Below are positions 3,407 through 53,736 of a stretch of DNA of 64,000 nt, in pieces. This stretch comes from Candidatus Moranbacteria bacterium GW2011_GWC2_40_12 (lineage in GTDB: Bacteria > Patescibacteriota > Minisyncoccia > Moranbacterales > UBA11712), in NCBI GenBank assembly GCA_000995965.1, contig LBYD01000002.1, forward strand, positions 199,889-263,888, written 5' to 3'. Both the position numbers and the translations under genes were made by a program. Each line of letters starts with the position of its first letter. The first letter of the stretch is position 1. The notes under the pieces were generated by a model. That model did not search any database. It was not told the DNA's origin and worked only from the letters and a program-made list of their open reading frames with translations.

Positions 3407-4585
3407 CTATTTTTCCGACATATAGTCCAGGATTGCCCGAATGGAATCCTTGGAAGTGGAAAAAATGAAGTAACTGTTTTCCTTGCTGGAAAGGACCGTG
3501 TAGTCCAGGGAGGTATTGGCGGGGCTCGGAAAATTATAATATCGGATATCGGCATTCAAATATTTGCTGGAGTTGAAGTTTATCTGGGTGTCAGCTGGCA
3601 GCCTGTCAAGATAGAAAGAGTTCAAAATCGAGAAAAGGTCCCCCTCCTCGCTTTTCAGAGACTCAGCCAAATTTTCCGATTGCGCCAGTTTGAAAGCGGC
3701 ACCCAGTCGCGGCTCGCCGTTTTCATTAGAAACAAACAGGCTGTAGTCGCCTGTCAATTTTTCAGAAACGCTTGCCGGGAAAACGAAATCAAAAAATCCG
3801 GAAAAAACCTGGGGAGTGACCGGCTGGTCATCCTTTGAAACTAATTTCACCTCTGTTGCTTTTCCCTGAGAAACCGATCCGGCGAGGCTCTTTGCATATC
3901 TTTCGATGGCCAACTTATTGGCGATTTTGTCAGCTTCCAAGTCAAGAGCCCATTGTTTCAGATTGTTTTGGGCGGTATTTGTTGCTGATGCAGATGTTTT
4001 TTCGCTTTGGGAAGTTGTCGCGGGAGCTGTTGGTGCGGCCAATGGGCTGTCTGTTGCGGCGGATCTCATGAAAAACCACCAATAGCAAGCTCCGCCTCCT
4101 AAAATAACAAGGATTAGTAAGGATGAAAGGATTATACCAAGCTTGCTTGAAGATTTCGCAGGTGATTTTGCGGATTCTTTTTTCGGAACTCCCGCTTTTT
4201 CATCGAACGGCGAACGGGTTTGAAAAAAAGTATCTGAACCGAACGGATTGGGCATATCGCTTTTTTTTTCGCTCCTCGCCGCTGTTTCGGCCGATTCTTC
4301 CTTCTTCGCAGGGTTAGAATTGGGAAGAGGAACCATTTTTTCAGGTACCGGCGATTGGACCTCAAATTGCGGCCGGCCGGCCGGTTGGATTTCATCGGAA
4401 TGTGCCGGCATCGTCGGTTGGGAAAGCGGCTCCATTGGTGATTCTTTTTTCGCTGATTTTAGGTTCGCAAGGTCATCCTTGAGAGTGCGGATTTTGCCGT
4501 AGTTGTTCGGAAGAACTGTGCTTGTGAGATTGGCCGGGTTAGTCTCATTTAGGGGATGTTTCATTTGGAACATTTGTTTTTGCAA
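3407..4585 (-). CDS. hypothetical single-pass membrane protein with Pro/Ser-rich disordered N-terminus
   Basis: 392-aa ORF; one TM helix (LGIILSSLLILVILGGGACYWWFF); no recognisable catalytic motif. Confidence 0.6.
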   Translation of the reverse strand: MQKQMFQMKHPLNETNPANLTSTVLPNNYGKIRTLKDDLANLKSAKKESPMEPLSQPTMPAHSDEIQPAGRPQFEVQSPVPEKMVPLPNSNPAKKEESAETAARSEKKSDMPNPFGSDTFFQTRSPFDEKAGVPKKESAKSPAKSSSKLGIILSSLLILVILGGGACYWWFFMRSAATDSPLAAPTAPATTSQSEKTSASATNTAQNNLKQWALDLEADKIANKLAIERYAKSLAGSVSQGKATEVKLVSKDDQPVTPQVFSGFFDFVFPASVSEKLTGDYSLFVSNENGEPRLGAAFKLAQSENLAESLKSEEGDLFSILNSFYLDRLPADTQINFNSSKYLNADIRYYNFPSPANTSLDYTVLSSKENSYFIFSTSKDSIRAILDYMSEK

Positions 4586-4704: not shown

Positions 4705-6831
4705 TTATTTTACACTATTTTCCAAACCTCGCATAGTAAGGTTGATTCTTCCGAGATTGTCTATTTCTTTTACTTTTACCGTGACCATTTGTCCGATCTT
4801 CAGCGCATCTTCGACTCGTTCGGTTCTTTTTTCGGAAATTTCAGAAATATGAACCATGCCTTCTTGTCCGGGGAGAATTTCGGCAAAAGCCCCAAAATTC
4901 ATTATACGCGTGATGCGACCCTGGAAAACTTCTCCGGGAACAACTTCATGCGTGAGATTTTTCACCCATTCGAGAGCTTTCGCGCCTGCCTCAGGATTAT
5001 CGGCAGTGATGAAAACCAAGCCATCGTCCTCAATATCAATTTCCACTCCGGTTTCATCAATAATCTGGTTGATGATTTTTCCTCCGGGGCCGATAACATC
5101 GCGAATTTTTTCCGGATTGATTTTAAGGGTGATAATGCGGGGTGCGTAGGCGGAAAGATCGGAACGAGGCGCGCCCAAAGTTTGGCTCATCACGTCGATG
5201 ATTTCAATCCGATTTTTCCTTGATTGTTCAAGAGTATCGCGGATCATTTCGGCTGTGAGTCCGTCGGTTTTCACATCAAGCTGGATCGCGGTGATTCCCT
5301 TTGTTGATCCTGCAATCTTGAAATCCATTCCGCCAAAATGATCTTCGGGTCCTTGAATATCTGTAAGGAGTTTGTATTTCCCGTCTTCGCCGATAACAAT
5401 TCCGACCGAAACGCCGCCGACCACTGATTTTATTGGAACGCCGGCATCAAGCAGAGCAAGGTTTGACCCGCAAGTGCTGGCCATTGAAGAAGAACCGTTT
5501 GAGGACAGTATTTCGCTTACCAGACGAATTGTATAAGGAAATGATTCTTTGTCCGGTATGACTGGCAGAAGGGCTTTTTCAGCCAAGGCTCCGTGTCCGA
5601 TTTCGCGCCGCCCCGGTCCGCGCATGGGACGGACTTCTCCGACTGAAAAGGGCGGGAAATTATAATGGTGCATAAAGCGTTTTTTTTCATCAAGCTCCAT
5701 GGTGTCGATAATTTGTTCCATGCCCGGAGCGCCGAGGGTCACGGTTGTGAGGGCTTGTGTTTCGCCCCGGGTGAAAAGGGCGCTTCCATGGGTGCGGGGC
5801 AAGATTCCAACTTGGCAGGAAATAGGACGAACTTCATCCAGCTTCCTTCCATCCGGCCGTTCGTCTTTCCCTAAAATCGCTTCATTGAAAAGCCTTTGTG
5901 TTTCGATGTCAACCGCAACGAGTGCCAGCTCTTTCTTTTGCGCACAGTCTTCCGGATATTTTTCCTTCACATAATCTCCGATCTCGGAGAAAAGCTCATT
6001 TTGGAGTTTCGTTTGGATGAAATAATCTTTTTGGAAAAGAGCCGGCCTGATACGCGCGGAAAATTTCTCCACGATTTCGCGTGCGAAATTTTCTTCCGGC
6101 AAAAACAAAATAGCCTCGGCTTTTGGTTTTCCAATTTCCTTTTGGATATTTTTTATGAAGCTGACGATTTGGTTGATAGTTTTTTGTCCTTCGGACAAAG
6201 CTTCAAAAATTTTCGCTTCCTCGGCTTCTTTGGCGCCTGTTTCAATCATGTTTATTTTTCCTTCAATTCCGCAGGCGAAAATATCATAAAGGCTTTTTTC
6301 TTTTTCTCCATTCACAGGGTTGACGACGGGCTGGCCGTTTTTTTCTCCGATTCGGACCGCAGCAATGGGGCCGTCCCAGGGGATGTCGGAGACAGTAAGC
6401 GCTGTGGAAGCGGCAATGGCGCCAACAAGCGCCGGATCATTTTCCTGGTCAATGGAAAGAACGGTGATGATCACCTGGACTTCATTTCGCATCTGCTGGT
6501 TGAAAAGCGGCCGGAGCGTCCGGTCGATAAGGCGGCCGTTTAGCACCGCTTCATCTGTTGGGCGGCCTTCGCGCTTGATAAAGCGGCTGCCTTTGATTTT
6601 TCCCGAAGCGTAGAATTTTTCTTCGTAGTCAACCATAAGAGGAAAATAATTCATTCCCTCTCTTGCTCCCGGGCTCATTACGGCAGTGGCGAGAACCATA
6701 GTATCGCCATAACGGACAGTGACAGAAGCGTTCGCTTGCTGCGCAAAAAGACCGGATTCAACGATTAGTTTTCGTCCGGCAATTTCCGTCTCGAATTTTT
6801 TTACTTTCTCCATTTTGAAGATTCTTTCCAA
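4705..6831 (-). CDS. pnp: polynucleotide phosphorylase (PNPase)
   Basis: 708 aa; two RNase PH domains plus C-terminal KH and S1 domains; located downstream of rpsO as in the canonical rpsO-pnp locus. Confidence 0.95.
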   Translation of the reverse strand: MERIFKMEKVKKFETEIAGRKLIVESGLFAQQANASVTVRYGDTMVLATAVMSPGAREGMNYFPLMVDYEEKFYASGKIKGSRFIKREGRPTDEAVLNGRLIDRTLRPLFNQQMRNEVQVIITVLSIDQENDPALVGAIAASTALTVSDIPWDGPIAAVRIGEKNGQPVVNPVNGEKEKSLYDIFACGIEGKINMIETGAKEAEEAKIFEALSEGQKTINQIVSFIKNIQKEIGKPKAEAILFLPEENFAREIVEKFSARIRPALFQKDYFIQTKLQNELFSEIGDYVKEKYPEDCAQKKELALVAVDIETQRLFNEAILGKDERPDGRKLDEVRPISCQVGILPRTHGSALFTRGETQALTTVTLGAPGMEQIIDTMELDEKKRFMHHYNFPPFSVGEVRPMRGPGRREIGHGALAEKALLPVIPDKESFPYTIRLVSEILSSNGSSSMASTCGSNLALLDAGVPIKSVVGGVSVGIVIGEDGKYKLLTDIQGPEDHFGGMDFKIAGSTKGITAIQLDVKTDGLTAEMIRDTLEQSRKNRIEIIDVMSQTLGAPRSDLSAYAPRIITLKINPEKIRDVIGPGGKIINQIIDETGVEIDIEDDGLVFITADNPEAGAKALEWVKNLTHEVVPGEVFQGRITRIMNFGAFAEILPGQEGMVHISEISEKRTERVEDALKIGQMVTVKVKEIDNLGRINLTMRGLENSVK

Positions 6832-7041: not shown

Positions 7042-7545
7042 TTATATCAGGAACTTTCTCTTGTTTTCGCTTAAATTGATGAAATCGTCCGCGACTTCGA
7101 TCAGTTTTCCTGAAGCCGATTCCTGAAAAGCGATCACTTCCACGCGGCAACCCATGGTATTTTGGAGATAATGAACCAGGGGAATATAATCCCCGTCGCC
7201 TGTCACCAAAACGATAACATCGAGATGCCCGGCAAGCTTGACAGCGTCAACTGTGATGCCCACATCCCAATCCCCTTTTTTGGCGCCACCGGGGAAAATT
7301 TGAAGATCTTTTGTGCGGACTTCATAGCCGGACTTTTGGAGGGCGTCAAAAAAATTCTTCTCGAGGCCCTCAATCGTCTTGATGCCGTAGGCGATGGCGC
7401 GGATAAGCTTTCTCCCGGAAGTGGCCGTTTTGAGCACTTCTTTGAAATCAACCTTTTTTTTATAAAGAACCTTGGCGGAATAATACATATTCTGAATGTC
7501 CACCAAAACTCCAACCCGTTGTTCTGAAAATTTTCCAGTTGCCAT
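7042..7545 (-). CDS. NYN (LabA-like, PIN-related) domain protein
   Basis: 167 aa; GVLVDIQN...DxxxxGD...VLVTGDGDY pattern of PF01936. Confidence 0.7.
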   Translation of the reverse strand: MATGKFSEQRVGVLVDIQNMYYSAKVLYKKKVDFKEVLKTATSGRKLIRAIAYGIKTIEGLEKNFFDALQKSGYEVRTKDLQIFPGGAKKGDWDVGITVDAVKLAGHLDVIVLVTGDGDYIPLVHYLQNTMGCRVEVIAFQESASGKLIEVADDFINLSENKRKFLI

Positions 7546-7578
7546 GATAATCTGTTTTAAATAAAAATAAACTTGTTG

Positions 7579-7848
7579 CTACTCCTTTAATCCCAAGGAG
7601 GCCACAATCTTTTTGAGTCTCTTCGGATCTTTTCCCTTCAGATAAGCTAGAAGCTTTTTTCGCTTGGAGACCATCTTCAAAAGACCCCTGCGGGAGTGGT
7701 TGTCCTTCTTATTTTTTTTGAGATGAGAGGTCAGGCTCTTTATTTTTTCCGTGAAAAGGGAAATCTGGACTTCCGGTGAGCCAGTATCTTTCTCATGTGT
7801 TTTCGAGGTTGCGATAACTTTCGTCTTTTTCTGCTTGGTCAAAGCCAT
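7579..7848 (-). CDS. rpsO: 30S ribosomal protein S15
   Basis: 89 aa; [10 protein letters not shown]...[26 protein letters not shown] conserved S15 core. Confidence 0.95.
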
Positions 7849-32400: not shown

Positions 32401-32985
32401 ATGAAAAAAATCATACTCCCCCTCGTTATTCTCTTGGCAATATTTTTTCTTCAAGCCAGGCCGGCATTTGCCGCCTCCATTGATTTCACAAACCCTTTGA
32501 CTGCCACCGATCTCAAGACCGTTTTGACGAATATCATGACATACCTCAGAAACATTGCCGGATCAATCGCCCTCCTTTTTATCGTTATCGGCGGGATTAT
32601 GTATATTGTCTCAACCGGCGACAAGGATAGAATGGAGCGCGCGAAAAACACTCTCATTTACGCCCTTGCCGGGTTTGCCATCGTATTAGCCGCATCTACT
32701 TTCACCTCCGAAATTCAGACGGCTCTCGGAGAGAGCGTGACATCCACCGGCGGACCCACTCTAGCGCAGATTATCCTCAATGTTTTGAGACTCCTTTTGT
32801 CAATCGTGGGATCTCTTGCTATAATAAGCATAGTGATCGGCGCCATTTGGATGTTCTCCGCCGGGGGAGATAAAGAAAGGTATGAGCTCGGGAAAAAAAC
32901 TGTGATCTATTCAATAGTCGGCGTGACGGTCGTTTTGATTTCCGTAATCGTCCTCAACCAAATCAAGACATTGATTGGCGGATAA
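32401..32985 (+). CDS. tandem-duplicated T4SS-pilin-like (PF18895-like) protein, two pilin modules
   Basis: 194 aa; signal peptide; two repeats of the pattern [amphipathic helix]-TM-SxGD/GGDKER-AK.T.IY-TM. Confidence 0.7.
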   Translation: MKKIILPLVILLAIFFLQARPAFAASIDFTNPLTATDLKTVLTNIMTYLRNIAGSIALLFIVIGGIMYIVSTGDKDRMERAKNTLIYALAGFAIVLAASTFTSEIQTALGESVTSTGGPTLAQIILNVLRLLLSIVGSLAIISIVIGAIWMFSAGGDKERYELGKKTVIYSIVGVTVVLISVIVLNQIKTLIGG

Positions 32986-33035
32986 AAACCCGAAAAAAAA
33001 TAATTTCGATGAAATTTGTGAGAGGAGGTGAATAA

Positions 33036-33392
33036 ATGAAAAAGAAAATACAATCTGTTGTGAGAAAAGTTTGGGCGGTGGCCTTTCTGTTTCCGCTGGT
33101 GGCATCGGCTCAATTTACAAAGCCCGGGAATACTGGTTTGCCTACTGGAACAATTTTCAACATTATCAAAGGTATTATGAACTGGCTTTTGGGAATTCTG
33201 GGGTTTGTGGCCGTTATTGGTTTTGTCGTAAGCGGAATCATGTTTCTTATTGCAGCTGGTGATGAAGACCGCCAAAAAACCGCCAAAAAAGCCATGTTTT
33301 ATTCAATTACGGGTGTCATTGTGGGCTTGGTTGGTTATGTAGCCTTGTTGGCGATTGAGGCAATGTTGAACGCGTCATCCGCGACATTCTGA
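33036..33392 (+). CDS. T4SS-pilin-like (PF18895-like) protein
   Basis: 118 aa; signal peptide (AVAFLFPLVASAQ); IIKGIMNWLLGILGFVAVIGFVVSGIMFLIAAGDEDRQKTAKKAMFYSITGVIVGLVGY. Confidence 0.7.
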   Translation: MKKKIQSVVRKVWAVAFLFPLVASAQFTKPGNTGLPTGTIFNIIKGIMNWLLGILGFVAVIGFVVSGIMFLIAAGDEDRQKTAKKAMFYSITGVIVGLVGYVALLAIEAMLNASSATF

Positions 33393-33532
33393 CCAGATAA
33401 ATATTTCTGAAAAGGTTTCCTTTGCGGCTTCGTTTCCAATGGAGCCGCTTTTTATTTGGATTGTATATTGCATAGTCTTCCTCGAAAAGCTATAATAAGC
33501 TCGGCGAGAAAAATAATTATTTTGAGACAAAA

Positions 33533-33931
33533 ATGAAAAAGACAATATGTTGCTATCTCACAACGACTAGAAATAAAAAGAAAATATTTATCGAAATATT
33601 TTTTGCTGTTTTCTTTTTAGTTATTTTTCTTCCAGGAGCGATTTTTGCTCAAGGTGTGCCCATTCCATCCGAGAGCCTGCCCGCGGGCAGTGATTTGAAA
33701 ACGGTGGTTGAGAATTTCATGAAGTGGCTTCTTGGCATCTTTGGTTTTTTGGCAATTATCGCTTTTATCGTAAGTGGAATAATGTATCTTACTTCTGGCG
33801 GTGACAAGGAGAGAGCGGAAACAGCTAAAAAAGCCATGAATTATTCCGTCATAGGGGTAATTGCAGGTTTATCGGGATATCTGATTATCCAAGCCATTGA
33901 AAGCTGGCTCGGTGGTTCTACTACTTTTTAG
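33533..33931 (+). CDS. T4SS-pilin-like (PF18895-like) protein
   Basis: 132 aa; signal peptide; MKWLLGIFGFLAIIAFIVSGIMYLTSGGDKERAETAKKAMNYSVIGVIAGLSGY. Confidence 0.7.
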   Translation: MKKTICCYLTTTRNKKKIFIEIFFAVFFLVIFLPGAIFAQGVPIPSESLPAGSDLKTVVENFMKWLLGIFGFLAIIAFIVSGIMYLTSGGDKERAETAKKAMNYSVIGVIAGLSGYLIIQAIESWLGGSTTF

Positions 33932-34272: not shown

Positions 34273-34364
34273 CTGCCCACAAGATATTTCAAATGGAGGT
34301 TTTTACCCCGACTTTACGTCGGGGCAAGTCCCTGCCTGCCGGCAGGCAGGCTCTCCCCGGCACA

Positions 34365-35849: not shown

Positions 35850-35858
35850 CGAGTATAT

Positions 35859-35874
35859 GCCGGGCTAGCTCAGT
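35859..35874 (+). pseudogene. 16-nt duplicate of the tRNA-Phe 5' end (gccgggctagctcagt) followed by a cccgcc motif, 88 nt upstream of the real tRNA-Phe start
   Basis: Exact direct repeat of 35947-35962. Confidence 0.6.
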
Positions 35875-35946
35875 CCCGCCAGAGGCGGATAAAGTCCGAG
35901 CAGAGGACTTGAGGTTAGCGTCGGAATTAACAATCGAATAATTTTT

Positions 35947-36314
35947 GCCGGGCTAGCTCAGTGGTAGAGCAGAAGACTGATTTTCGGTCCATTCCGCAGC
36001 GATGCGGAAAAGAAAAATCGGGTGAATTCGAGGAAACCTAATCTCCGACGTTATGTTGGAGCAGGGCAATCTCGAGCCAATCCTTCGCCGGGAGGCTACG
36101 GATTGCAAGCAAGCTAATTTTAGAAGGCTTGCCTGCCGTAGCTTTAGCGGAGGCAGGTGTAGAGACTAGCAGGTGAGTTCCAACAATAATCCTGCGCCAG
36201 CGCCCGACCGCTCCCTTCGCGAAGGGAGGGGATGAAATAGTCCGATCCTTGGGGAAACTCAAGCAAACGACGAGGAAAATCTTTGTGTGCCCAGTTCGAT
36301 TCTGGGGCCCGGCA
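35947..36314 (+). tRNA. tRNA-Phe (anticodon GAA) interrupted by a group I intron between positions 33 and 34
   Basis: Exon 1 is 35947-35978 (acceptor gccgggc, D-arm tagctcagtggtagagca ~ E. coli tRNA-Phe, anticodon stem gaaga, ct). Exon 2 is 36275-36314 (gaaaa-tcttt, variable gtgtg, T-arm cccag-ttcgatt-ctggg, acceptor gcccggc, a). The spliced loop is ctGAAaa. Confidence 0.75.
35979..36274 (+). ncRNA. group I self-splicing intron (~296 nt, no ORF) in the tRNA-Phe anticodon loop
   Basis: P1 with U.G at the 5' splice site (exon gacu / intron gguc); P7 halves gAGACUAg (36163-36169) and auAGUCC (36237-36243); terminal G before exon 2. Confidence 0.7.
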
Positions 36315-36388
36315 CAAACAATTTATAAACTACGCCAAAGCGGGATTGCCCGCCGAAGCCTGCCTGCCAGCAGGCAGGCGTAGCGCAG

Positions 36389-52164: not shown

Positions 52165-53736
52165 ATGGTCAAGAAAATTCCGAAACCCATAATCGAAATT
52201 ATCCAAAAACTCGAAGCCGCTGGTTTTGAGGCTTTTGTCGTGGGCGGGTGCGTTCGGGACTTGCTGATGGGCGTTGAGCCCAAGGATTGGGACGTGACGA
52301 CAAACGCAAAGCCGGAGGAAGTATCAAAATTATTTCCGGATAGTTTTTATGAGAACAAGTTTGGGACGGTAGGTGTAAAGATTCCGAAGCTTACGAATCA
52401 AAGCTCGGCTTTACCCTCGCGAGAGCGGAGCTCTCGCGATTCCTCAAAGCCAAGCTTTTCAGAAGTTGTTGAAGTGACAACCTATCGAATCGAAAGCAAG
52501 TATTTGGACAAGCGGCATCCGGATGAGGTGCGGTTCGCGAAGACGCTCGAAGAGGATTTATCGAGGCGGGATTTTACGATCAATGCGCTGGCACTTAAAA
52601 TCGTTAATTCTGATTTTGAAATAGTGGATCTCTTCGATGGCCAGAAAGATCAGAAGAAAAATATAATTCGGGCAGTGGGAAATGCGAACGAGCGTTTTGA
52701 TGAGGATGCGCTTCGAATGATGCGGGCAATTCGTTTTGCGACAACACTCACAAATGAAAGCGAAGTAAAGCGAAGCAGAGCGAATAGTGGCCCAAGAAAA
52801 TTAGCAAAGAAAACACCATTTGAGATTGAAGAAAAAACGAAAAAAGCAATTGCAAAGAATGCGAAAAACTTGAAACATATCGCTCTCGAAAGAATCCAGG
52901 ATGAGCTGAACAAAATCATGCTGTCTGATTTTGCGGCGGAAGGAATTGAACTTTTGCGCGAACTAAAATTATTGCAATATATCATTTCCGAGCTTGAGAA
53001 AGGCTATGGCGTCGGCCAAAACCGGCACCATATCTATACCATCTGGGAGCACTCGATTTTGTCCCTCAAAAATTGCCCGTCGGAAAAGTTGGAAGTTAGA
53101 TTAGCAACCCTTTTACATGACATTGCGAAGCCCGATACGAAAAGAGGCGAAGGCGCTTATTCGACATTCTATAATCACGACCATGTCGGAGCGCGGGTGG
53201 TCGAAAAAATTTTGAAACGCTTGAAATATTCTTCGGACATAATCAAAAAAGTTCGATTGCTTGTCGATAATCATATGTTCTACTACAACGTTGAGGAAGT
53301 GGGGGCTTCGAGTGTGCGGCGCCTCGTGAAAAAAGTGGGACTTGAAAACATCGATGACCTCATTGATCTTCGCGTGGGTGACCGGCTGGGAAGCGGCGTG
53401 CCCAAAGCCGTGCCGTACAAGCTCCGCCATTTCAAATATATGGTCGACAAGATTTCAAGCGACCCGCTCTCGGTCAAAATGCTGAAAGTCAACGGCAACG
53501 ATTTGATGCGTGAATTGAAACTCAAACCAGGCCCGATGCTCGGAGCGATTTTAGACGTGCTTCTTTCGGAAGTTATAGAAAATCCAGAGGAAAACAAAAA
53601 AGATATATTGCTGAACCGAGCGAAAGAACTCGCAAAAGAAAACTTGACGAAACTTCGTGAGATGGCGAAGGAGAAAATTGAAGAGAAAAAAGAAGAAGAA
53701 GACAAAGAGATTAAGAGCAAGTATTGGGTCAAGTGA
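52165..53736 (+). CDS. cca: CCA-adding enzyme (tRNA nucleotidyltransferase head domain plus HD domain) carrying an in-frame ~22-aa low-complexity insertion
   Basis: GGCVRDLLMG...DWDV NTase motif; HD motif (LLHDIAKP); the insertion NQSSALPSRERSSRDSSKPSFSE is encoded by the MITE-like element at 52399-52466. Confidence 0.85.
   Translation: MVKKIPKPIIEIIQKLEAAGFEAFVVGGCVRDLLMGVEPKDWDVTTNAKPEEVSKLFPDSFYENKFGTVGVKIPKLTNQSSALPSRERSSRDSSKPSFSEVVEVTTYRIESKYLDKRHPDEVRFAKTLEEDLSRRDFTINALALKIVNSDFEIVDLFDGQKDQKKNIIRAVGNANERFDEDALRMMRAIRFATTLTNESEVKRSRANSGPRKLAKKTPFEIEEKTKKAIAKNAKNLKHIALERIQDELNKIMLSDFAAEGIELLRELKLLQYIISELEKGYGVGQNRHHIYTIWEHSILSLKNCPSEKLEVRLATLLHDIAKPDTKRGEGAYSTFYNHDHVGARVVEKILKRLKYSSDIIKKVRLLVDNHMFYYNVEEVGASSVRRLVKKVGLENIDDLIDLRVGDRLGSGVPKAVPYKLRHFKYMVDKISSDPLSVKMLKVNGNDLMRELKLKPGPMLGAILDVLLSEVIENPEENKKDILLNRAKELAKENLTKLREMAKEKIEEKKEEEDKEIKSKYWVK
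52399..52466. repeat. ~65-bp MITE-like element with 13-bp TIRs and an internal perfect hairpin (cgcgagagc-gga-gctctcgcg), inserted in-frame in cca
   Basis: Termini aaagctcggcttt / aaagccaagcttt shared with the intergenic copy at 15708-15775. Confidence 0.55.

Follow-up and report, generated by a model that had tools for sequence, protein, structure and literature searches.

The window analysed here, which is the whole 64-kb stretch of DNA, carries 12 tRNA genes. The gene for tRNA-Phe(GAA) is split in its anticodon loop, between U33 and G34, by an intron of 296 nt, as determined both by reading the sequence and with ARAGORN. The 5' exon (35947-35978, on the plus strand like the intron, its structural elements and the other exon) is 32 nt long, GCCGGGCUAGCUCAGUGGUAGAGCAGAAGACU, and comprises the acceptor 5' strand, the D arm, the 5' strand of the anticodon stem, C32 and U33, so that its end, ...GAAGACU, falls at U33. 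The intron occupies positions 35979-36274 and is followed by the 3' exon (36275-36314), GAAAAUCUUUGUGUGCCCAGUUCGAUUCUGGGGCCCGGCA, which begins GAAAAUCUUU with G34, A35 and A36 and ends GCCCGGCA with the discriminator A. When the exons are joined they form a canonical cloverleaf of 72-73 nt that ARAGORN calls tRNA-Phe(gaa), and when the unspliced DNA is searched in intron mode the same program reports tRNA-Phe(gaa)i(34,296) with the loop CU↓GAAAA (arrows mark splice sites). The earlier note, which had placed an intron of this length directly after U33, had the coordinates right. Neither default-mode ARAGORN nor the Rfam tRNA model detects the gene. The position of the intron boundary is ambiguous by a single G (either ACU↓G...G↓G or ACUG↓...GG↓), and the first option is preferred because it is the only one with a U at position -1 facing a G.

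CCA is absent from the 3' exon as encoded, and a candidate gene for a CCA-adding enzyme (PolyA_pol head domain and tRNA_NucTran2_2) is located at 52165-53736. A second tRNA-Phe gene was not seen within the 64-kb window, and the interrupted gene is presumed to be the sole tRNA-Phe gene of the genome. Proteins encoded in the window include GyrA, L19, ClpP, trigger factor, H+-pyrophosphatase, NusA, IF-2, PNPase, FtsH and S1 in addition to the candidate CCA-adding enzyme. An identical L19 protein is encoded on GCA_001000395.1 (LCHJ01000014.1) and on JGI and ENA metagenome contigs, and the tRNA-Phe region in all of these is identical to that of the window except for one base. Upstream of the pseudouridine synthase and L19 genes the window also contains three small tandem genes (32401-33931) with Pfam matches to TrbC/T4SS pilin in the precomputed annotation of the identical contigs.

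The region between the tRNA-Val(UAC) gene and the tRNA-Phe gene (35859-35945) holds a decayed duplicate of the tRNA-Phe 5' exon (35859-35909, plus strand) that lies outside the functional gene. This pseudo-exon opens with an exact 17-nt direct repeat, TGCCGGGCTAGCTCAGT, found at 35858 and again at 35946. Its D-loop GGTA is replaced by a 23-nt insert with the hairpin CCGCC-AGA-GGCGG, followed by GAGCAGAGGACT, and its likeness to the real gene reaches precisely as far as the 5' splice site (after U33) and no further. The pseudo-exon has the family-consensus G (GAGGACT) at a position where the working gene has an A, and GAGGACU is the ancestral state. The GACU that matches the intron guide is still present, and the pseudo-exon could in principle serve as a cryptic 5' splice site. 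Neither L118, the closest intron relative described below, nor any of the 16 other related genomes has such a pseudo-exon (0/17). An origin of its 36-nt tail from the P7/P7.1 region of the intron by deletion was considered and rejected, since the best local alignment of 14 was equalled by 430 of 1000 shuffles.

A second repeat found in the window is the GC-rich motif GCYTGCCTGCC, which has six copies (at most one mismatch) against 1.3 expected and may be a small repeated palindromic element. The copies are mostly short perfect palindromes, and the window has an excess of small GC-rich palindromes based on GCCTGCCTGCC. Sites are found at 36127-36137, 36344-36379, 34330-34351 and 55637-55647; one lies in the P6 extension of the intron and two lie in the spacer between the tRNA-Phe and tRNA-Gly genes, which folds into a stable multi-hairpin structure (z = -2.9).

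Core structure and covariation of the intron

The Rfam group I model RF00028 (Intron_gpI) matches positions 35969-36264 with 57.0 bits, above the gathering score of 50, and with E = 7.9e-12 for the whole 64-kb window. The match extends over the whole length of the model (positions 1-253), at a level far above that expected by chance. Additionally, the unconstrained minimum free energy (MFE) fold recovers P2, P3, P4, P5, P5a, P6a, P8, P9 and P10, and its energy is 4.2 standard deviations below that of dinucleotide shuffles (z = -4.2). No credible ORF was found in the intron, and homologues are as short as 208 nt. The only mechanical ORF is a 74-aa antisense frame with a TTG start (36038-36262), which was rejected as an intron-encoded protein because it has no Pfam match at E <= 1 and is not conserved, given that family members are without the corresponding P6 segment.

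A P1-P10 model was built by hand and mapped onto the window coordinates. In the P1 hairpin (35975-35989) the exon bases GACU and the first intron base G (35975-35979) pair with the internal guide CGGUC (35985-35989) around the loop AUUUU, and the U33.G wobble marks the 5' splice site. The first seven intron nucleotides (35979-35985, GAUUUUC) constitute the P10 guide, which is complementary at 7/7 positions to GAAAAUC (36275-36281) and is also paired in this way in the MFE fold. P2 (35992-36009) consists of 7 bp, UUCCGCA/UGCGGAA, closed by the GNRA loop GCGA. P3 (36018-36024 / 36201-36207, UCGGGUG/CGCCCGA) is a long-range pairing that crosses P7 and thereby forms a pseudoknot. The P4-P5-P5a domain (36029-36074) has P4, CGAGG/UCUCG, enclosing J4/5, P5 (CCU/AGG) and the P5a hairpin (36043-36061), which is present with variable length in the family and is found in the MFE fold as well. 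P6, P6a and an extension occupy 36076-36158, with P6 formed by GCC/GGU and P6a by CCUUCGC/GCGGAGG; the long lineage-specific extension (36089-36146) is found only in the window and L118 among 18 genomes. P7 (36162-36168 / 36238-36243), the expected guanosine-binding helix, was identified by sequence reading as G(A)GACUA/UAGUCC. Between P7 and P3' the intron has an extra hairpin, P7.1 (36169-36195), with the stem GCAGG/CCUGC and the 17-nt loop UGAGUUCCAACAAUAAU. P8 (36211-36228, CUCCCUU/AAGGGAG) is supported by sequence reading and the MFE fold, and all family members have a hairpin at this position. The P9 hairpin (36248-36263, CUUGGG/CUCAAG) carries a GAAA loop, and the intron closes with the terminal G (omega G) at 36274.

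The model was tested on an 18-genome alignment (A2, MAFFT) using 51 modelled pairs. Standard pairs were found in 97.6% of the cells, versus 30-45% when the 3' partners were slid by 1-3 columns, and 27 pairs had changes on both sides versus 6-11 in the slid controls; the observed covariation score was reached by 0/500 shuffles. The compensatory changes were distributed over P2 (7/7 pairs), P3 (3/7), P4 (1), P6 (1), P6a (7/7), P7.1 (4/5) and P9 (4/6). Pairing reaches 100% in P3 and P9 and 98-100% in P4, P6 and P6a, the last three having changes on both sides, and P4, itself 100% paired, shows a switch between A-U and G-C that divides the set into 8 and 10 genomes. P5a and P8 were left out of this count because MAFFT mis-registers hairpins of variable length. 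P1 and P7 do not vary across the 18 genomes, and their support within this set is therefore from sequence only. The pattern used for the genome search (GATTTT after U33) forced P1 and P10 to be constant, and P1 does covary in a wider comparison with the tRNA-Phe intron Mba55.Phe.2Ug from the Williams seed alignment, which has GCCCU↓AA/UUGGGGC where the window has GACU↓G/CGGUC. P7 is perfectly complementary, and GUAGAGACUA is present in 56/56 distinct copies of the intron.

The 18 aligned genomes likewise show no variation in the U at position -1, in the G that pairs with it or in the terminal G, and it is this alignment that provides the independent evidence for the terminal G, as the pooled set of 64 copies was chosen by a pattern that requires it. 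The loop of P7.1 follows the motif UGAGYCCCAACAAUAAY in 54/56 distinct introns (the motif is present in L099), and the L2 and L9 loops are each of the GNRA type in 54/56.

Selection is also apparent in the flanking exons. The acceptor, D, anticodon and T stems of the tRNA are paired in 100% of the cells across the 18 genomes, and the anticodon stem of the window (GAAGA/UCUUU) differs from that of its relatives (GAGGA/UCCUU) by a compensatory A-U versus G-C change whose two sides are separated by the intron. As judged from the alignment, the tRNA exons are under selection as a single molecule.

The agreement between the Rfam model, ARAGORN, the hand-built P1-P10 model with its 18-genome covariation and the co-evolution of the exons supports the assignment of this element as an ORF-less group I intron of the tRNA-Phe(GAA) anticodon loop, inserted directly after U33, and its features are those of a functional group I ribozyme. 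The earlier note had described the U.G pair in P1, the two P7 halves, the terminal G and the lack of an ORF from the sequence alone, and all four observations were borne out; the Rfam scan and the manual P1-P9 modelling that it had proposed gave, respectively, a score above the gathering score and a foldable core.

Distribution and inheritance

Relatives of the intron were sought in a set with a single genome for each species, using a pattern in which the tRNA-Phe D arm precedes U33-GATTTT. Among the 120 matches listed, the same interrupted tRNA-Phe gene was found in at least 17 other species-level genomes, with introns of 224-297 nt as determined by ARAGORN. The hosts among the matches listed are Moranbacteria/Moraniibacteriota, Falkowbacteria, Magasanikbacteria and MAGs labelled Parcubacteria or Patescibacteria group, and almost all genomes with the interrupted gene among these matches belong to the Patescibacteria. 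The closest intron relative among the matches listed is L118, a Moraniibacteriota MAG. A more specific junction pattern returned 61 metagenome contigs, and in 52 of the 61 ARAGORN identified complete tRNA-Phe introns of 208-304 nt. The pooled set contains at least 64 complete copies with 56 distinct intron sequences of 224-304 nt, the shortest ARAGORN call in the metagenomes being 208 nt. This type of intron is common within the Patescibacteria, and the view in the earlier note that a Phe host is uncommon does not stand in light of these genomes and contigs.

Two short contigs of MAGs labelled 'uncultured Gammaproteobacteria' (L015 and L084) also have a Patescibacteria-type interrupted tRNA-Phe gene, set in a tRNA cluster that is likewise of the Patescibacteria type. 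They are probably mis-binned, because their sequences cluster with the Patescibacteria copies. Two Microcoleus loci that matched the pattern, L024 and L081, were rejected as instances of the intron. L024 holds two HEARO RNAs (RF02033, 90-92 bits) at 3682-3910 and 5666-5895 that adjoin a tRNA-Phe-like fragment and are unrelated to the intron.

The gene order Leu(GAG)-Val(UAC)-Phe-Gly(GCC) is kept in the window and in the Moranbacteria-like loci, and a second group of loci has the order Ile-Met-Phe-Pro. In a number of related loci (L011, L027, L031, L052, L076, L099, L118 and others) the tRNA-Phe gene is directly followed by a promoter-like TTGAACC...TATAAT element and an inverted repeat. A conserved small gene that starts ATGAGAAAAGATAAA lies after this promoter-like element in related loci, and the window has the tRNA-Gly gene there instead.

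These data bear on whether the intron is a decayed relic that no longer splices, in which case this copy of tRNA-Phe would be a pseudogene and a second, uninterrupted tRNA-Phe gene elsewhere in the genome would serve translation. The pseudo-exon just upstream does show that duplication and degeneration have taken place at the locus. However, no core element has been lost and compensatory selection on them is evident in the 18-genome set, the exons on either side of the intron co-evolve, and the interrupted gene fills the tRNA-Phe slot of a conserved tRNA cluster in 17 genome loci and 52 metagenome contigs, none of which has an uninterrupted copy nearby. CPR genomes, moreover, usually hold single-copy tRNA genes. 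Taken with the intact core, we regard a relic as extremely improbable and the reading of a functional intron is retained.

Group I introns can be mobile, and a recent invasion of tRNA-Phe in this lineage by reverse splicing or endonuclease homing was weighed against long residence at the site. That tRNA introns come and go in these bacteria is indicated by L091, a Moranbacteria MAG in which the tRNA-Met(CAU) gene directly downstream of the interrupted tRNA-Phe gene (7145-7837, miscalled Leu(caa) by ARAGORN) has a 620-nt insertion that likewise follows U33 and contains a group I core at 7570-7777 (63 bits with Rfam); at the matching position in the relatives L011 and L117 the tRNA-Met gene is uninterrupted. 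For the tRNA-Phe intron itself the evidence points the other way: none of the 56 distinct sequences is long enough for or contains an ORF, the intron sequence groups track both the exon sequence groups and the gene order, and the junction pattern had no match in viral contigs. An active mobile element is thus highly unlikely. The lack of an endonuclease ORF, the conserved synteny and the intron groups that track exon groups suggest instead that the tRNA-Phe intron is old, vertically inherited and now immobile. An origin of the locus from a phage was also rejected, as a blastn search of 50,697 phage records with the tRNA cluster gave matches to the flanking tRNAs only and the genes of the window are bacterial housekeeping genes.

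Comparison with known introns of bacterial tRNAs

The Azoarcus tRNA-Ile intron and the Anabaena/cyanobacterial tRNA-Leu(UAA) introns have been proven experimentally to self-splice, whereas splicing of the window intron is only predicted. We take these introns, which belong to subgroup IC3, to be very similar to the window intron in J4/5-P5, GAGCCAAG and GGUGUAGAGACUAG, and they share with it a compact size, a location in the anticodon loop and, presumably, GNRA loops on P2 and P9. They differ in their insertion sites (after U36 in tRNA-Ile and after U34 in tRNA-Leu(UAA), as opposed to U33 in the window) and, on the same assumption, in having no P7.1. With regard to the subgroup, the core strings of the window intron resemble those of the L091 tRNA-Met intron and presumably those of Azoarcus, yet the window intron has the covarying P7.1 hairpin, whereas the IC3-type core of the four classical bacterial tRNA introns is one without P7.1/P7.2; at the level of sequence, the core resembles IC3-type introns in other bacterial tRNAs. 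In L091 P7 leads straight into P3' (AGACUAGACGGCAG) without P7.1, and in the Crocosphaera tRNA-Arg(CCU) intron (L101) the P7/P3' junction carries an insertion that is larger and of another kind.

In a survey of about 80,000 bacterial genomes, Williams (bioRxiv 2020, 10.1101/2020.01.27.920355) extended the known host/site types of tRNA group I introns from 4 to 21. The four classical types are Leu.3Ug, Arg.5Ug, fMet.2Ug and Ile2.5Ug, all IC3, and a high frequency was noted in metagenomic assemblies from unnamed phyla (10.1101/2020.01.27.920355). The list of hosts in the earlier note, which was confined to tRNA-Leu, fMet, Ile and Arg, is therefore outdated, as 21 types are now listed and the type Phe.2Ug, which the preprint text covered here does not discuss, is catalogued by name in the supplement and represented in the seed alignment by the tRNA-Phe intron 'Mba55.Phe.2Ug' (10.1101/2020.01.27.920355). 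The presence of group I introns in some CPR tRNAs has also been remarked on (Lui et al. 2021, PMC8172020). Outside the Williams seed alignment, the literature covered here holds no explicit mention of a named group I intron in a bacterial tRNA-Phe. In view of the catalogue in the preprint, the tRNA-Phe intron described here is not new and is an instance of the Phe.2Ug type.

As given in the seed alignment, Mba55.Phe.2Ug agrees with the window intron in its tRNA-Phe host, in the site after the second loop nucleotide U33, in the U at position -1 and in the terminal G. By inspection its core strings match the window closely (P3 CUGGGUG, AAUUCGGGGAAA, GUAGAGACUA, AGCGCCC and GAUAGUCC), and its P7.1 hairpin has the same loop, ugagucccaacaauaau. 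It differs in the anticodon stem and, in step with this, in the P1 guide, and the P6 arm of the window intron is much longer than that of Mba55.Phe.2Ug, the long arm being common to L118 only among the relatives compared. The insertion site after U33 was at one point considered to be new, and this was rejected since the classical type fMet.2Ug, as catalogued in the preprint, has the same site and the L091 tRNA-Met intron is located there too. The cyanobacterial tRNA-fMet intron of this type (IC3) is, like the window intron, compact, ORF-less and inserted after U33 of a bacterial tRNA; it differs in having another host tRNA and hence another P1/P10 guide.

Hairpins between P7 and P3' are found elsewhere in the seed alignment, where the extra element is annotated as helices P7.1/P7.2 (10.1101/2020.01.27.920355). 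Introns of the types Lys.2Ug, Asn.4Ug and Leu.1Ug and the Cbo40 and Tsu4 tmRNA introns have one or more hairpins at this place, as in the window, but reside in other RNAs and at other sites; in the tmRNA introns the place is taken by two long hairpins, unlike in the window intron. Lys.2Ug and Asn.4Ug share with the window intron the same P3/J3-4 strings and a related P7.1 loop (gagga...aauaa). In the seed alignment, the P7.1 module thus occurs in related form in the Lys and Asn tRNA introns of Patescibacteria, and modules of a similar kind are otherwise found in tmRNA introns.

Predicted splicing and its consequences

Taken together, we predict that the tRNA-Phe(GAA) gene, that of a Patescibacteria (CPR) bacterium, is interrupted between U33 and G34 by a group I intron that splices itself out, and we assign to this reading a probability of roughly 0.92. 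That the intron actually removes itself is inferred. Before splicing, P1 would form between the guide CGGUC and the end of the 5' exon (its final four bases, GACU) extended by the first base of the intron, and the U33.G pair in this helix would mark the 5' splice site. If the reaction follows the pathway established for group I introns, the first attack, after U33, would be made by an exogenous guanosine bound by P7. In the next step P10 (GAUUUUC with GAAAAUC) would hold the 3' exon while the terminal G at 36274 enters the G-site, and finally the 3'-OH of U33 would attack after the terminal G, so that the exons are ligated with the anticodon loop CUGAAAA and the 296-nt intron is released. Removal of the intron would be required for a working tRNA-Phe and hence for translation.

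In vivo, the splicing of some group I introns requires protein cofactors, and what is termed self-splicing may be assisted; such assistance is established for mitochondrial introns. It is conceivable in this case that a genuine group I ribozyme depends in vivo on a host protein or chaperone, with the P7.1 loop serving as the binding site. The near invariance of this loop (54/56) on a stem that covaries would fit either a tertiary or a protein contact. However, efficient self-splicing in vitro is known for compact bacterial tRNA introns with a similar core (Azoarcus, Anabaena), the GNRA loops that close P2 and P9 point to stabilisation by RNA-only tertiary contacts, and a candidate cofactor gene linked to the locus was not found. 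Dependence on a protein is for these reasons considered unlikely, and autonomous splicing along the pathway above is the preferred reading.

A related and tentative proposal, which we think doubtful, is that the P7.1 module combined with an IC3-like core defines a distinct, undescribed subclass in which the loop makes a new tertiary contact or binds a host protein. If this is true, maturation of the presumed sole tRNA-Phe could be a controllable step in reduced genomes.

Because standard tRNA finders miss the interrupted gene, genomes can be wrongly scored as lacking tRNA-Phe. As the type is on record (10.1101/2020.01.27.920355, supplement and seed alignment), what the window contributes is chiefly one more case, well documented, together with a model of the structure drawn from comparison. 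The family, with 56 distinct sequences, is a compact, ORF-less and well-sampled set of ribozymes that is useful for structural and evolutionary work. If the intron splices as predicted and the interrupted gene is the sole tRNA-Phe gene, the translation of every Phe codon in this organism would depend on a ribozyme reaction, and the same dependence would hold for many other Patescibacteria if the interrupted gene is their only tRNA-Phe as well.
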